A program made the position numbers and the translations under genes. From contig OX597835.1 in assembly GCA_951406725.2 (NCBI GenBank), forward strand, positions 27,528,001 to 27,592,000: a stretch of 64,000 nt of DNA. Reading direction: 5' to 3'. Positions 8,919 to 57,049 of this stretch are shown here, piece after piece (the stretch's first letter is position 1; the number at the start of each line of letters is the position of its first letter). Below the pieces are notes generated by a model, which was not told where the DNA came from, did not search any database, and worked only from the letters and a program-made list of their open reading frames with translations. The DNA is from Octopus vulgaris (lineage: Eukaryota).

Positions 8919-8954
8919 CTTTCTGTAGAAGAGCATAGGCTCGAAACGTAAAAG
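8919..8954 (+). ncRNA. minimal hammerhead-like motif with CUGUAGA core, inside a ~190-nt repeat (8845-9038)
   Basis: CTTT CTGTAGA A GAGC-atag-GCTC GAAAC GTA^ AAAG. Stems I and II are perfect and the junction ACGT is palindromic. Core position 6 is non-canonical (U). Confidence 0.6.
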
Positions 8955-9568
8955 ACTTTTTCAATTCCTGAGCGTTATACTAATACATTGTTTGTTTTCC
9001 ACACCACCTGTCTTCATCTTGTGTTTTTTGATGAATTCTGTGTGCGTGTGTGTGTGTGTGCTTGCATGTGTCCATGTATATACAATTGTGTGTGCGTATG
9101 TATGAGCGTTTGTCGTGTGGGTGTGGGTTCATTTGCATGTGCATGTGTGTGTATGTGTGTTCATGTGCATATATGTGTGTGCGAGTGAATGCATGTGCGT
9201 GTCTACATGTGTGTATATGTATATATGTGTATGTGAGAGAGTGTGTGTATATATGTGTGTGTGTGTATATGTATATATGTGTATATATATATATGTGTGT
9301 GTGTGTGTGTATCCATCATGCGAAACTGTTAATCCTGACATATCTGTTCTTTTTCTCTCTCCATTTTTTTTTTCACCTGTCATCCCTTTCTGTTGAAGAG
9401 TGTTGGCTAAAACCATCAAACTAAAGACACCTATGTCTTCTTTCCTCACCTGTCTTCTTAGCCTTTTGTTTTCCGTACACAGAGTTCATGGTGAGGTAAA
9501 CAACAACGAAGGTATCAAGTGTTGATAGGAAACTATAAAGATGTAAGTACCAAATTTATATATATATA

Positions 9569-10065
9569 TCATCATCATCGTTTAACGTCCGCTTTCCATG
9601 CTAGCATGGGTTGGACGATTTGACTGAAGACTGGCAAACCAGATGGCTGCACCAGGCTCCAATCTGATCTGGCAGAGTTTCTACAGCTGGATGCCCTTCC
9701 TAATGCCAACAACTTTGAGAGTGTAGTGGGTGCTTTTACGTGCCACCGGCATAAGGGCCAGTCAGGTGGTACTGGCAACAGCCACGCTCAAATGGCGTTT
9801 TTTATGTGCCACCTGCACAGGAGCCAGTCCAGTGGAACTGGCAATGACCTTGCTTGCTCGAATGTTTTTTCATGTGCCACCAGCACAAGTGCCAGTAAGG
9901 CAACACTGGTAACGATCACGTTCAAATGGTGCTTTTTATGTGCCACTGGCACGGAAGCCAGTTAGCCACTCTAGCAACAATCACACTTAGACGGTGCTCT
10001 TAGTGCTCCACTGGCACGGATGCCAGTCATCGAATTTGATATCGATTTCACAGGTCTTCGCAAGC
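9569..10065 (-). mobile_element. retroposon family C with (GAT)n tail (RTE-type 3' end); others ~1082-1250, 2075-2280, 6300-6520, 7503-7750, 21432-21680, 41772-42015, 55180-55320, 58150-58462, 61858-62145
   Basis: Shared catcatcatcgtttaacgtccgctttccatgctagcatgggttggacg...ctggatgcccttcctaacgccaaccactc; internal repeats gcttttacgtgccaccggcac. Confidence 0.85.
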
Positions 10066-10194
10066 ACATGTATATATTTATATATATATACCAGAGTAAG
10101 CACATAAATGTGTAACAAGGTGGAAAAAAGAGTACTCAAATACCAGGGGTAGAGTAATATGCTTTATTTAAAAGCAGCAGAAAATATAACAAAA

Positions 10195-10236
10195 GCCTAT
10201 TACTCAGAGTTTCATGTTCCCGTTCATCGGACAGCA
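10195..10236 (-). ncRNA. degenerate copy of the same hammerhead family, within repeat 10090-10235
   Basis: Minus strand CTGT CCGATGA ACG-ggaa-CAT GAAAC tctga GTA ATAG, with single lesions in stems I and II. Its flank is homologous to 18780-18893. Confidence 0.55.
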
Positions 10237-52551: not shown

Positions 52552-52731
52552 TGGCTTTGGGTAAAAGAAAATACAGGAGGATCAGTTAATTATGATTTTC
52601 GTCAACATATTCCTCTCTCAGATTCACACACTTATTGCAGCAGTCCTTCAGTTTTTCTAAGCCCTGTAAAAGAATGCAAAAGGCCTTTCATGATACCCTT
52701 AAAGCCAGAAACTTTTCAGCACCCTTTTGTA
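52552..52731 (-). mobile_element. mariner-derived MITE, copy 2 (inverted, one TIR truncated)
   Basis: Reverse complement of copy 1, separated from it by about (TA)20. Confidence 0.88.
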
Positions 52732-54195
52732 TATATTAATGTAAACTTTACAGAGAAAAATAATCCTTTCTGTGATAGGCATGACACCAGAAATTTTGTG
52801 GGAGAGGGCAATTCAAGTGCATCAACCCCAGTGCATAACTGGTACTTATTTTATCAACCTCAAAAGGTGAAAAGCACAGTTGACCTTGGCAGAATTTGAA
52901 CTTAAAATGTAAAACTAGAAGAAACACTGCTGAAGATTTTGTTTAATATGCTAATGACTCTGCTAGCAAGTCAACATTTAAGGGGGAAAAAAATAACAAA
53001 AAGTAAATCATGTATGAATTAAGTGATAACATTTCCAACCGACAGTGATATTATAGATTCTAGACAGGAAATTTTGAGAGAGAACAGAAACAAAACCATA
53101 AACGCTAAGCCTGTCTGTCTCTGTCTGTCTTGTATGTCTCAAATCACAGCTTGTAATGTTGAATATCACTATTATTGAAAAATAAATCATGGCATAAACA
53201 TTGTAGATATTTCAAAGGATTACAAAACGAGACAAAAACATACATTTTTCAAATTCTAAACTTATGTTCTATGCGATTCAAACTTTAAGAAAATTAAGAA
53301 AAATATTTAAAACAGATCGCACAAGAGAATGTTTGGAAATATAGATTCTAAATCTTTTAAAAGTATAACTATCTTTTCTTTGACGTTTCTGTAAGTATTT
53401 TTTTTCCTTTCAGAATTCTTTCCAATCCATGGCAATGAATTCAACACTGACGTTAGATTTCAGGAAGAGAGGAAACAATATCGAAATATAAAACTAAAGA
53501 GAAACCAAGACACGGTTTGCTAGATACTGAACGATATATTATATTCTTGCTTCATTGTATTTGTATGAATAGATATATACGCAAGCATGCACACAACGAC
53601 ATACACACACAAACAAACACATGTTTATCAGTATAGATACACATATACATACATATCTGTACATAAATATATATTTATATATATTTCTGTATACAAATAT
53701 ATATAGAAAAATTTTTATATATATATATATATATATATATATATATATATATATATATATACACACACACATATATATATACTCATATATATATATATAT
53801 ATATATATACACACATATATATACACATGTATATATAAATATATATATATACATTTATATACATATATATATATACATACATACACACACATACACATAT
53901 ATATATAGGTTGAAGATACAGAGTCACTCTCAAGCAACTCAATCATCATTGAATGACATTATCCACGATAGGTACACATAGAATTAAATCGTAAAATTAT
54001 CAAAATTAATACCTTCAATTCTTAATCTAAATCATATACTTTACATAATATATACTACGCACGTTTCATGACAATATATTCCACAATATTGCTGAAATAG
54101 AGGTCTCAAAATACAATACCATATTAAAACGATTATATTGCCAATCTTCAGGTCTAGATTATATGAACTTATTTTGCTATTTACATCCTATATAA

Positions 54196-54658
54196 AGACA
54201 TGACAATCTAAAATTATATAAGTAGAAGTTGTTGGAGTAATTTTACTTCAGTAAATAATGAACAGAAATGTGGAATAAAAGTAGGAAAAATAAATGTTAA
54301 CTTATCTGTATGGTAATTTTCTCTCCACAAATTAAACATGGCTACCAGTAATCGTATAATCCAACACTTACTTTTGGCTTCTCCTGATTTATTGTTATTC
54401 ACTTCCCTTACACAGTAATTATAAATAATAGTAAATACATTTTAAGAACTTTTAAATGTTAATAAGTATTATCTCCCCTACACAGTAGCTCTCAACGTTG
54501 GATTATACGATTGCTGACAGCTATGTTTAATTCGTGGAGAGAAAATTACCATACAGATAAATTAAAATTTATTTTTTATTTCACATTTCTGTTCATTATT
54601 TACTAAAGTTAAATTATTCCAACAACTTCTACTTATTTAATTTTAGTTTGCCATGTCT
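54196..54658. mobile_element. foldback or MITE-like element with ~165-bp inverted arms
   Basis: 54196-54366 is the reverse complement of ~54495-54658 (e.g. ttatctgtatggtaattttctctccac / gtggagagaaaattaccatacagataa). Confidence 0.85.
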
Positions 54659-56911
54659 AGTGATGCGCTTAATGCTTCTGGCCATCTCTTTAAGGATCAT
54701 ACATTGGGTACTTCTGGACAACGGAGCAACCCCAGCACTTTCAGATATGGAAGCATGTGTGCTACCAAGGTCTTCTCTTACTTATCTACCTATTTTTCAG
54801 ATGTCATGCTGGGATACACTTCTTCTCGAATCTTTATCTCGAACCTTTATTGGCTATCCCTGAATGAGATTTATAATTTTATTTGTGCTTATATATATAT
54901 ATATAGATATATAAACTCACACACACATATGCACCCATGGAAGAGTACCAAAGGAATGAAGAAGGGGTGTTTCACACATATTGTGGAATATATTGTTTAT
55001 TGGAACTGAATGCTTATATTCCACAACTTAGGTTACATGCCACTACAATCAGCAGGCAAGAACAAATTGTGCGCCTATATATATATATATATATATATAT
55101 ATATATACACACACACACACACACACACACACACACACACACACACACATGGAGGTCAATGGCAGTGGTTAGGGCATCGGACTCGCTTTCCATGCTAGCA
55201 TGGGTTGGACAGTTCAACTGGGGTCTGGGAAGCCAGAAGGCTGCACCAGGCCCAGTCTGATCCGGCAATGTTTCTACAGCTGGATGCTCTTCCTAACGCC
55301 AACCACTCCATGAGTGTAGTATATATATATATATAAATATACATATAGACACACACACACACACACACATACATATACATACATATATACACACACATAT
55401 ATACATACACACAACTGTACATTAATACTAATGTGTCTACCTTTTACTAGCATCATGTAAAAAATAAATTAATACAGTAAAAAAAAGGGAACAGTTGGAA
55501 GAATCTGTAGCAGTGATGGTGTTATTGGTAATGGTGACTGGAGAAAGAAATAGGGAACTGAAAGAAAAGGGGAGAGAGAGAGAGAGAAAAGAGGGAGAGG
55601 GTGCAAGAGAGAAAGAAAGTAGTAGTAAAATAAAGAGAGTAAATAAGAAAATTGTAAAGGGCATTGGAGATGGCAATATATATATATATATATATATATA
55701 TATATATATATATATATATATTGAAATATGAGAGAATAAGTGTGAAAAGAGGGAGAGAGAGATAAAGGTAGTTTAGTATTAGAGTGTAAGAGGAAGTGAG
55801 AGAGATATATATAGAGAGAAGACTGCAGATTTAAAGAAGTGGGAGTTAAAGAAAACATGCGTAGGAGTGGCTGTGTGGTAAGTAGCTTGTTTACCAACCA
55901 CATGGTTCTGGGTTCAGTCCCACGGCATGGCACCTTGGGCAAGTGTCTTCTACTATAGCCTCAGGCCGACCAAAGCCTTGTGAGTGGATTTGGTAGACGG
56001 AAACTGAAAGATGCCCGTCGTATATATGTATATATATATGTGTGTGTGTGTGTATATGTTTGTGTGTCTGTGTTTGTCCCCCCAACATCACTTGACAACC
56101 GATGCTGGTGTGTTTACATCGCTGCAACTTAGCAGTTCGGCAAAAGAGACCGATAGAATAAGTACTAGGCTTACAAAGAATAAGTCCTGGGGTCGATTTG
56201 CTCGACTAAAGGCGGTGCTCCAGCATGGCCACAGTCAAATGACTGAAACAAGTAAAAGAGTAAAGAGTGAAAAGAGAGTATGCAAGGTGAAGGGCAAAAT
56301 TTGAGATGATGAATATGGTATGGAGATGACAGGAAGGGGACAATATGAAATGGACCAAAGCTTGTGATGTCACTGCCTCTTTAGTTAACCCATTCTCTTC
56401 TTTCCTTTCTCTTTAAAGTATGTTTGAAGTGTATCATTGTAGATAAACTTGAAAGTTTTGATACACAAATGATATGATCTTCAATGTATATACGCACATA
56501 AATTTATGTGAAACCAGCATGTTTGTGTATGTAGATATATTTCATGTTTCTCTATGAATTCCTTCCCATCTTCTTGCTGAAATTTTCATGGGTATTGCTA
56601 ATATAGATATAAATATTAATACATATTTATGTGTGTATATATATATATATATATACACACTAAATAATATGTATAGCTCTATATATGTGTATATATGTAT
56701 CCACATGTATGTGTATATTCATACATGTTTATGTGTATACACGCACCCACACACATCCACACACACATATATAGAATAAATTATGTATGGCCATTTGCAA
56801 GGCATCACATCATTTATAGGATATTTATACAGAAGTGAGAACAAAAATATATAAATATAGCAGGAAAGAAGGAAATTCTGAAGATATAAATTCTTGCTGC
56901 CACAAACATTA

Positions 56912-57049
56912 TCTTCTGATGATGTCCTAAGTCATGCATACTGTACTATCTTATTCACAGTATATTGCACCAAGCAACATTATGTATATATAGGTAAAAT
57001 GAACAGATCAGCTTCTAATGTGCACCTACTCCAGAAACAGCTGTAAAGA
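56912..57049 (+). ncRNA. type-I hammerhead-like motif with a ~110-nt stem-II insert
   Basis: TCTT CTGATGA TG...CA GAAAC AGCT GTA^ AAGA. Stem I is perfect and loop 3 is the perfect palindrome ACAGCTGT, typical of dimerising minimal PLE hammerheads. Only 2 bp of stem II are evident. Confidence 0.5.

Follow-up and report, generated by a model that had tools for sequence, protein, structure and literature searches.

The association of hammerhead ribozymes with Penelope-like elements (PLEs) is already published, including one hammerhead from an octopus PLE of the Hydra clade. Minimal type-I hammerheads occur in the pLTRs of metazoan PLEs (Cervera and de la Pena 2014, PMC4209133), where, as at the locus described here, they combine a short stem I, an extra nucleotide separating position 9 from 10.1, a G10.1–C11.1 pair and a palindromic 15.2–16.2, and form many unrelated families per genome, with single truncated copies numbering in the thousands, closely spaced inverted pairs and a U3–A8 variant. 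That variant is the core change named in the portion of the study used here, in which, in contrast to the octopus families below, no A6U, U4C or 110-nt loop 2 is mentioned. In the material of Perreault et al. (2011, PMC3088659) used here, natural A6C (from a phage) and U4C (from a viroid) are weakly active, with a kobs below 0.1 per min for A6C and lowered in vitro activity for U4C, and U3–A8 is active. For PLEs themselves, the portion of Frangieh (2024) drawn on here reports an internal start of reverse transcription, AT-rich targets and a hammerhead aided by protein; hammerhead mutants of an Anolis PLE still inserted in vitro, and no reads ended at the cleavage site.

Here we describe a 64,000-nt stretch of the Octopus vulgaris genome (the window), which lies entirely within the minus-strand gene unc-13 (G000 C22:27433563-27701555). 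Its hammerhead-like motifs are very probably hammerhead folds at the 3′ ends of retroelements (families A, B and D being protein-coding PLEs and C retrozyme-like) that inserted into the AT-rich introns of this gene. Within the part of the published literature that was covered, we found no family-wide A6U, family-wide U4C or loop 2 of about 110 nt.

Hammerhead motifs in the unc-13 introns

The initial annotation had proposed eight type-I hammerheads from about six families. All eight sites are present, and they sort into six families of repeats: A, 8919(+) and 29913(−); B, 10195(−) and 19006(+); C, 35172(+); D, 17769(−); E, 40832(+); and F, 56912–57049(+). All hammerhead-type sites in the window lie between mapped unc-13 exons (Table 1), in agreement with the proposal of minimal, PLE-terminus or retrozyme-type hammerheads with a palindromic stem III in unc-13 introns. 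Seven of the eight are genuine at the family level, but 40832 has no stem I. The literal CUGANGA and GAAA layout holds at 17769 and 56912 and not at the other six sites, the core reading CUGUNGA in family A and CCGANGA in family B, and AAAA standing in place of GAAA in the C and E copies of the window. Families A and D resemble each other across the 50-nt motif region. A ninth motif, overlooked by the initial annotation, belongs to family G. Further candidates at 23971(−) and 15702(+) were rejected for having no related copies among the loci compared, and one at 36476(−) is a repeat but does not have the GAAA-NUH-stem I layout. The density of one motif per 8 kb holds for the window if decayed copies are counted, but the window is unusually dense: the whole 268-kb gene contains about 15 insertions of families A–F.

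Table 1. Insertions, motifs and exons in the window, with the basis of each assignment or a remark
Feature	Position	Strand	Remark
Family A insertion, 5′-truncated 3′ end (pLTR) of a Neptune-like PLE	8847..9037	+	Repeat boundaries
Family A type-I minimal hammerhead, A6U, palindromic ACGU stem III	8919..8954	+	Predicted cleavage after 8950
Family B insertion, Hydra-like PLE 3′ end, sense to unc-13	10091..10234	−	Repeat boundaries
Family B hammerhead, U4C; one stem II pair lost through CpG decay	10197..10234	−	Against family majority
Family D insertion, sense to unc-13; PLE 3′ end without its own tail	17745..17870	−	Repeat boundaries
Family D hammerhead, canonical core	17769..17803	−	Stem II pair and palindrome CG altered
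unc-13 exon	18351..18470	−	Exon mapping
Family G insertion between TA repeats	18491..18680	+	Young family, inverted pairs
Family G hammerhead, U3–A8 covariant core	18523..18561	+	Same sequence in 13 of 19 parsed copies
Composite family B insertion	18704..19086	+	Two forward copies and inverted partial copies
Family B hammerhead, U4C; stem III palindrome lost through CpG decay	19011..19048	+	Against family majority
unc-13 exon	21892..22011	−	Exon mapping
Family A insertion, sense to unc-13	29823..29979	−	Repeat boundaries
Family A hammerhead, A6U core; palindrome CG to TG	29913..29948	−	Against family majority
unc-13 exon, C1 domain	30591..30809	−	Exon mapping
unc-13 exon	32390..32467	−	Exon mapping
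Family C insertion, portion of 339-nt retrozyme-like unit	35157..35404	+	Repeat boundaries
Family C hammerhead; window copy with G12A	35172..35223	+	Against family majority
Family E insertion, old, low-copy; core at 40839	40780..40964	+	Repeat boundaries
Family F hammerhead, loop 2 about 110 nt	56912..57049	+	Stem II damaged in window copy
Local 225-nt tandem duplication	56948..57398	+	Of the family F motif, duplicates the 3′ half alone (57256–57274)

We took the type-I core as C3-U4-G5-A6-N7-G8-A9, G12-A13-A14, A15.1–U16.1 and H17. The majority sequences of families C, D and F have this core, as does G by way of U3–A8; A departs from it at one position (U6), as does B (C4). Stems I and II close the core, and stem III is formed or palindromic, in A, B, C, D, F and G. 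In A, B, C, D and F, the family-majority sequence has the complete type-I layout and restores what is broken in the window copies. In E, the majority of 17 copies retains a core, a palindrome and a stem II of 2 bp, and stem I pairing is absent. On this sequence criterion, family E is not classed as a hammerhead. Its assignment to Naiad_Ovul or another consensus of Craig et al. (2021) was rejected, as short motif searches of the supplement to that study returned no sequence of families A–F, in a file whose line breaks may mask matches. An Rfam scan showed no hammerhead family among the 150 listed of 361 matches, a list filled by microsatellites.

Could the motifs be chance matches within repeat-rich DNA? 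When one core mismatch was allowed, the descriptor found five matches in the window with a score of at least 5, whereas 30 local dinucleotide shuffles averaged 0.63 (maximum 4); at this loosest score, one of the 30 shuffles thus came to four matches against the five observed, and the absence of stem I in family E points the same way. Against chance, a wider descriptor, whose variant cores were picked after the data had been seen, gave 12 matches in 274 kb versus a mean of 0.7 (maximum 2) in 20 shuffles; moreover, the motif has a fixed position within PLE 3′ ends, and family majorities are closer to it than the window copies are. We regard chance as a highly improbable account of the motifs as a whole: it is ruled out for A, B, C, D, F and G, and is possible for E.

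Elements that carry the motifs

Copies end at a fixed point about 95–125 nt beyond the cleavage triplet, adjoining (TA)n. Their 5′ sides are shortened variably, often with an inverted 5′ duplicate, and most are 120–250 nt in length. On the upstream side, long copies of A, B and D extend into a same-strand gene for a GIY-YIG-type endonuclease. These three families thus have the hallmarks of EN+ PLEs, namely a fixed 3′ end, variable 5′ truncation, inverted duplicates and (TA)n targets, and a further one, the pLTR on both sides of the ORF, is also present. The suggested linkage to PLE reverse transcriptase (RT) and GIY-YIG genes was borne out by a complete frame for A and by the endonuclease end only for B and D.

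In family A, a GIY-YIG C terminus lies about 1 kb upstream of one long copy (E = 0.047 in Pfam, a GIY-YIG score that falls short of the cut-off). When loci were chosen by the family A protein alone, the motif was found 314–1018 nt downstream in 36 of 40, with U6 in all 36. One locus (L184) has an open frame of 1098 amino acids with RT and endonuclease (RVT_1 E = 6e-8) and the motif on both sides, in repeats that are only 82% identical. The frame runs from RT through a CX4CxxC linker to a C-terminal GIY-YIG domain with CCHH, and so contains the CX2-5CxxC linker and C-terminal CCHH endonuclease of the Neptune clade. Family A resembles Neptune-clade PLEs, as far as Craig et al. (2021, PMC8557442) was drawn on, in domain order, (TA)n targets and a hammerhead near the 3′ end, and differs in its family-wide A6U and a long low-complexity 3′ UTR.

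For family B, two of eight upstream regions reach a Hydra-type endonuclease at about 90% identity over 1.1 kb, and the endonuclease end is contiguous with the 3′ UTR. Pfam recognized no domain in the endonuclease fragment. The frames at L227, L228 and L230 have no CCHH, and their conserved E and N are surrounded by CxxC and CxH motifs, with the CxCX5C linker visible in L228 only. These motifs, together with (TA)n targets and a hammerhead whose palindromic stem III has 4 bp surrounding a single free base, recall the Hydra clade (PMC8557442), and stems I and III match those of Hydra-2_aMil (Craig 2021 File S2). In File S2, U4 and A6 stand in all 34 rows, whereas family B has C4. Its motif sequence also differs from that of Hydra-1_Obim (Octopus bimaculoides), and B is therefore a separate family. 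The labels Neptune-like (A) and Hydra-like (B) follow protein motifs rather than an RT tree. An inverted partial copy accompanies 22 of 30 family B loci, and in the composite insertion one precedes each forward copy (18704–18740 before 18760–18894, which is missing its 5′ core, and 18919–19002 before 19008–19086).

In family D, a GIY-YIG tail immediately precedes the common 3′ UTR in one of three long copies; no ORF was found in twelve 1.4-kb regions upstream of D, three of which were then extended. Many D copies begin at nearly the same place, some 85 nt upstream of the core. That shared start, the 120–250-nt size of most copies, the 339-nt tandem unit of C and the lack so far of an ORF link for E, F and G (for E and F, 15 loci of each with flanks of 1.5 kb gave no match to the family A protein) could suggest that every family is short and non-autonomous, as the initial annotation supposed, and that these SINE- or retrozyme-like elements are mobilized in trans. 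This is improbable: longer A, B and D copies reach endonuclease genes, and 3′ ends are fixed while 5′ ends vary. Five of the eight motifs (A, B and D) instead lie in 5′-truncated ends of protein-coding PLEs, and only C is retrozyme-like.

The family C majority is canonical, with a 6-bp stem I, a 4-bp stem II and a long palindromic stem III, and a second unit lies 319–339 nt away at 3 of 30 loci. A non-coding, AT-rich, 339-nt head-to-tail unit, in partial tandems and with a canonical type-I hammerhead, agrees with the non-LTR retrozymes (non-coding units of 150–450 nt) of Cervera and de la Pena (2020, PMC7229834) and the Li et al. (2026) preprint, in the parts drawn on; C differs in that its copies are old (about 80% identity), mostly below two units and known here from DNA. 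No link to an ORF emerged for C, and we rejected C as the pLTR of a PLE at L221, where microsatellites separate the C copies from the frame and the copies sit within a local inverted duplication. Family F has a perfect 8-nt palindrome as stem III; an exact long pattern retrieved no intact copy, and loop 2 of four real copies folds barely better than shuffles (z −0.5 to −2.2). The family G motif has a 7-bp stem I, a 2-bp stem II and a palindromic stem III, and covariation maintains its 3–8 pair as U3–A8.

Altered cores and cleavage

A6U and U4C are family-wide states rather than lesions. Family A is the commonest hammerhead family here, with about 15,000 exact copies, and A6U is found in 14,944 of its 15,487 exact pattern matches; U4C runs through family B (about 1,500 exact copies). 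The changes are thus fixed in families, in contrast to the isolated variants in PMC3088659 as drawn on here. An alternative register of A, with a U inserted after G5, is ruled out because the would-be A6 then takes all four letters. Family B copies with U4 (9 of the first 100 matches listed, in which N7 shows C-to-T in 10) reflect CpG decay and were rejected as a canonical subfamily. The window copy of A at 8919 has an extra A after A9 and equals the family majority save for one loop-2 base.

Family A subfamilies differ at free positions only. Among 90 A copies, the best matches anchored on the G8-to-stem I pattern with four mismatches allowed, shared non-CpG variants are absent from all 30 core and stem sites and occur at 28 of 113 flank sites and at 2 of 6 free sites, namely N7 and H17 (Fisher p = 0.0012, which overstates independence because the copies are non-random and share ancestry). 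H17 is A, U or C, with G in 0 of 90, and N7 takes all four bases. Judged from these sequences, the family A motif outside A6 looks to be kept by selection.

Stem III of A and D is self-complementary and unable to form in the monomer, and the ACGU self-duplex is worth just −1.7 kcal/mol. By analogy with the PLE literature, the element protein would nick AT-rich DNA and reverse transcription would start at an internal site downstream of the hammerhead; even the shortest copies would therefore carry the motif. Within a tandem transcript of the parent element, two hammerheads would pair through the palindromic stem III and cut after GUA or GUU, freeing unit-length RNA. Inserted copies would then decay neutrally, chiefly at CpG and on both strands. 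The A6U and U4C cores are predicted to be weak alone, and A and B most likely work by protein-assisted dimer cleavage, a reading to which we give an even chance and which we favour since changes in the master lineages of A are confined to catalytically free positions. More tentatively, A may be a recently active family that reached at least 15,000 copies with U6 while the remaining core bases, the two stems and the palindrome were held by selection, as in B with U4C, and alongside a third family with a 110-nt loop 2; these may be protein-dependent ribozymes that are active only inside the element ribonucleoprotein.

It is also possible, if rather unlikely, that A and B retained the fold as a protein-binding or packaging signal near the RT start and lost cutting. 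A6U and U4C fall at positions where changes reduce activity in the part of PMC3088659 used here, and the weakness of A6C and U4C in vitro means that A and B may hardly cut; the altered-core family A is the most numerous, with its A6U matches far above the 2,635 exact matches of canonical D; and cleavage was dispensable in vitro for the Anolis PLE of Frangieh (2024). But an H17 that is never G beside an N7 of any base is the pattern that catalysis permits, and covariation in family G preserves the 3–8 pair.

Sense copies in unc-13 and wider meaning

The initial annotation had noted a lesion in each of the three minus-strand copies. Each of the three does depart from its family majority at a structural position, yet the same is true of four of the five plus-strand copies, and lesions on either strand are mostly CpG decay. 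The idea behind the remark, that sense hammerheads would cut unc-13 pre-mRNA and that selection removed or inactivated such copies, might also draw on the insertion count across the 268-kb gene (5 sense, 10 antisense) and on the depletion of retrozymes from Xenopus introns (Li 2026 preprint, as far as drawn on). We consider it very unlikely, since the strand imbalance does not reach significance (p = 0.30), two intact sense family A copies (C22:27649824 and 27675728) lie inside an unc-13 intron, and the motif is intact in just 45 of the 90 best-matching family A copies anywhere. Single hammerhead copies in the unc-13 introns are likely inert, and for the gene the finding is an ordinary one of decayed transposon ends within large introns.

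For the elements, strict CUGANGA descriptors overlook the largest hammerhead-bearing family of the Octopus vulgaris genome. Protein dependence, if true, would explain how thousands of intact copies remain uncut in host pre-mRNAs. PLE hammerheads are slow in vitro and one PLE inserted uncut in a purified system, which raises the questions of whether they need to cut and how weak ribozymes work in cells. One host holds a natural series, with canonical D, A6U in A (including copies with open frames), U4C in B, U3–A8 in G and a long loop in F, and this makes the question of cutting directly testable.

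Hammerhead-bearing repeats in unc-13

The initial annotation listed eight type-I hammerhead motifs from about six families, and all eight are present at their positions (see table). Genome searches sort them into six repeat families, A–F, with a further family, G (18523, plus strand), missing from that list. First-look candidates in the 2.8-Gb genome numbered 2366 for family A, 1091 for B, 212 for C, 2878 for D, 28 for E and 53 for F; 40 candidates were scored per family search (28 for E), and the copies studied are the best matches. Majority profiles came from 90 A, 53 B, 31 C, 35 D, 17 E and 15 F copies, with F also profiled from 34. 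A descriptor allowing one core mismatch recovered five of the eight sites, against a mean of 0.63 matches (maximum 4) in 30 local dinucleotide shuffles. With a wider descriptor, whose variant cores were picked after the data had been seen, the 274-kb gene region gave 12 matches against a mean of 0.7 (maximum 2) in 20 shuffles. The motifs are real and of a known kind, with family-wide core variants under apparent selection. The accompanying interpretation, that the carriers are short non-autonomous elements, was partly wrong, as families A, B and D are linked to endonuclease open reading frames (ORFs).

Cuttlefish UNC13 protein maps to the minus strand of the contig at C22:27433563-27701555 and places four exons inside the window (C22:27528001-27592000), with flanking introns that extend to 27507670 and 27624616. 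Every motif lies between mapped exons, unmapped alternative exons being possible.

Features of the window and of related loci (window coordinates unless a locus is named)
Feature	Position	Strand	Remarks
Family A	8919	+	
Family A	29913	-	
Family B	10195	-	
Family B	19006	+	
Family B	18760		cut copy
Family C	35172	+	G12A, at a CpG
Family D	17769	-	
Family E	40832	+	
Family F	56912-57049	+	
Family G insertion	18491-18680	+	seventh hammerhead-bearing family, young and high-copy, U3-A8 core; window copy intact
Further canonical minimal family	C22 window offsets -74527, 127397		antisense in unc-13, twice; also twice in locus L043
unc-13 exon	30591-30809	-	encodes C1 domain; identity to cuttlefish UNC13 across 96% of query
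Forward and inverted family B copies	18704-19086		would give long hairpins in unc-13 pre-mRNA
(TA)n tract	44808-45842		1 kb; all families studied have (TA)n as their target
Repeat from 5′ edge of a family B copy	10231-10400, 11135-11304		at least 170 nt identical, 904 nt apart; local duplication or assembly artefact
SINE-like repeat	12187-12597, 25779-26373, 22687-22914, 27023-27250		184-nt period; tandem and inverted
LINE-like fragments	24549-25010, 48163-48717		taken by us to resemble the C-terminal part of LINE reverse transcriptase
GC-rich repeat	36380-36560		three minus-strand CUGANGA words and a hairpin, no hammerhead layout; second copy in the same gene at L218
Second Neptune-like PLE	L221:5060-7411 (C1:26205501 + offset)		784-aa open frame (RVT_1, GIY-YIG); in a local inverted duplication alongside family C copies and another U3-A8 motif

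Variant cores on Penelope-like elements

Family A, carried by a Neptune-like Penelope-like element (PLE), has a 4-bp stem I, CUGUNGA, an extra A, a 4-bp stem II, GAAA, CG and UH. U occupies position 6 in all 30 loci examined. The exact 30-nt pattern occurs at 14,944 places with U6 and at 543 with A, C or G there, and reversed-pattern controls gave 0 matches. The first 100 listed matches without U6 comprise 71 with C, 20 with A and 9 with G, a distribution expected from mutation of U. Copies have a common 3′ stop before (TA)n and a variable 5′ side, and a long copy continues upstream into a GIY-YIG C terminus. A 100-aa GIY-YIG piece used as query returned 14,716 candidates, with open frames of up to 1098 aa among the 150 scored. 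In 36 of 40 loci chosen by GIY-YIG protein match, the family A motif lies 314–1018 nt downstream on the same strand, with U6 in every one of the 36. The frame at locus L184 combines reverse transcriptase, a CX4CxxC linker and a CCHH endonuclease, and a motif-bearing repeat lies on either side of it, the two repeats being 82% identical to each other.

Across 90 family A copies, with CpG transitions set aside, none of the 30 core and stem sites has a variant shared by at least 8% of copies; two of the 6 free sites, N7 and H17, do, as do 28 of the 113 flank sites. H17 itself is A in 73, U in 16, C in 1 and G in 0 of these copies. The contrast between site classes (Fisher p=0.0012) is suggestive rather than exact, because the copies share ancestry and part of the motif served as their anchor; it suggests that core and stems are held, apparently by selection, while free sites vary.

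Family B has a 4-bp stem I, CCGANGA, a 3-bp stem II and a 4-bp palindromic stem III flanking one variable base. Its exact pattern, with C or U at position 4, occurs at 1,514 places; the first 100 listed comprise 91 with C4 and 9 with U4, and 10 of them carry C-to-T at N7. Given these similar frequencies, U4 is attributed to CpG decay, which reverts C4 to the canonical base in about 9% of exact matches. An inverted partial copy adjoins family B in 22 of 30 loci. Double-stranded RNA such as the hairpins of 18704-19086 would be a candidate substrate for A-to-I editing in cephalopods. Two of eight upstream regions run over 1.1 kb into a predicted endonuclease lacking CCHH and carrying CxxC and CxH motifs, and a third region of the eight has a CxCX5C linker; these features are Hydra-clade marks. 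In Craig 2021 (PMC8557442), stems I and III of Hydra-2_aMil are identical to those of family B; File S2 of that study includes the Octopus bimaculoides element Hydra-1, whose hammerhead is canonical, and the file has U4 and A6 in all 34 rows, in contrast to the C4 of family B.

Hammerheads at PLE ends, abundant single truncated copies, the extra nucleotide and U3-A8 are already described in PMC4209133, and a 2026 octopus repeat annotation gives 30 recently active Penelope families, the word ribozyme being absent from the text available to us. The unplanned outcome here is a set of family-wide core variants under apparent selection. Within the literature on PLE hammerheads accessible to us we found no report of a PLE family in which A6U or U4C is fixed, nor of a loop 2 as large as that of family F; these variants may already appear in Lunse 2017, whose topic is PLE hammerhead variants, in the supplementary figures that accompany Cervera 2014 or in the figures of Perreault 2011.

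Canonical and divergent layouts

Family D has a canonical core with 2,635 exact matches, and A6 in 97 of the first 100 listed. Its likeness to family A (74–80%) is limited to the 50-nt motif region. Twelve 1.4-kb upstream regions have a CA-rich tract in common and contain no ORF; directly upstream of this tract, one of three extended regions carries a GIY-YIG tail with an inverted duplicate. The family C majority likewise has a canonical core, with a 6-bp stem I, a 4-bp stem II and a 6-bp palindromic stem III with a 2-nt centre. Its 339-nt unit, about 80% alike between copies and followed by a second unit in 3 of 30 loci, fits the description of non-LTR retrozymes (PMC7229834; Li 2026 preprint, as far as available).

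The type-I reading fails for family E, which has the core, a 2-bp stem II and a palindrome, with inverted pairs seen, and no stem I pairing in 17 copies. We do not count it among the hammerheads; it could be the decayed remnant of one, or a motif reduced to the core like those of Naiads in Craig 2021 (PMC8557442). In family F about 110 nt separate the 5′ core from the downstream GAAA, and the two ends of this insert pair to form a 4-bp stem II. Stem I is also 4 bp long, and stem III is formed by a perfect 8-nt palindrome. The family is old (69–80% identity). Its 3′ half has 41 exact genomic matches and the whole majority pattern has no exact genomic copy. Loci L053, L244 and L245 hold compact relatives that share the family F stem III. 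Family G, inserted 20 nt from an unc-13 exon, combines a covariant core with a 7-bp stem I and a palindromic stem III. Among 2,138 candidates the top copies are 93–98% alike, several in inverted pairs, and the motif is identical to the window copy in 13 of 19 parsed copies (20 fetched).

A further canonical minimal family has a 5-bp stem I, an extra A and a long stem II. At least five more hammerhead layouts lie in the flanking DNA of L016, L053, L069, L097, L126, L168, L171 and L194, some with a 30-nt loop 2 and one in tandem in L194.

Orientation and proposed role

The initial annotation held that the minus-strand copies, which are sense to unc-13, are all lesioned. All three do deviate from the majority at structural sites, but so do the plus-strand copies at 19006, 35172, 40832 and 56912. 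Intact plus-strand motifs in the window are that at 8919, the only one among the plus-strand sites first listed, and family G; structural changes in window copies are mostly CpG transitions. Across the whole gene, the six families contribute 5 sense and 10 antisense insertions (p=0.30), microsatellite and SINE-flank matches having been dropped and inverted composites scored once, by main copy. Two intact sense family A copies lie in an upstream unc-13 intron. The implied selection on sense copies is not supported, and this small sample gives no sign of orientation selection in unc-13.

The motif sits at a fixed position at the 3′ end of the elements, which target (TA)n and show 5′ truncation and inversion; A, B and D are linked to ORFs, and the cores are family-wide. 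According to the available text of Frangieh 2024, the PLE protein cuts AT-rich DNA and reverse transcription begins inside the RNA, and the hammerhead is protein-assisted yet dispensable in vitro. Metazoan minimal hammerheads are described as uncut as monomers and weakly cut as dimers, and Perreault 2011 (PMC3088659) includes A6C and U4C as weakly active in other systems; cleavage by the A6U (family A) and U4C (family B) hammerheads is putative. We propose that the motifs would process tandem element transcripts, acting as dimers. Single intronic copies would be inert, in families A and D because stem III cannot close within a monomer and the 4-bp self-duplex has only -1.7 kcal/mol. In family B, decay of C4 to the canonical U4 would leave some genomic copies with a better core than their parent.
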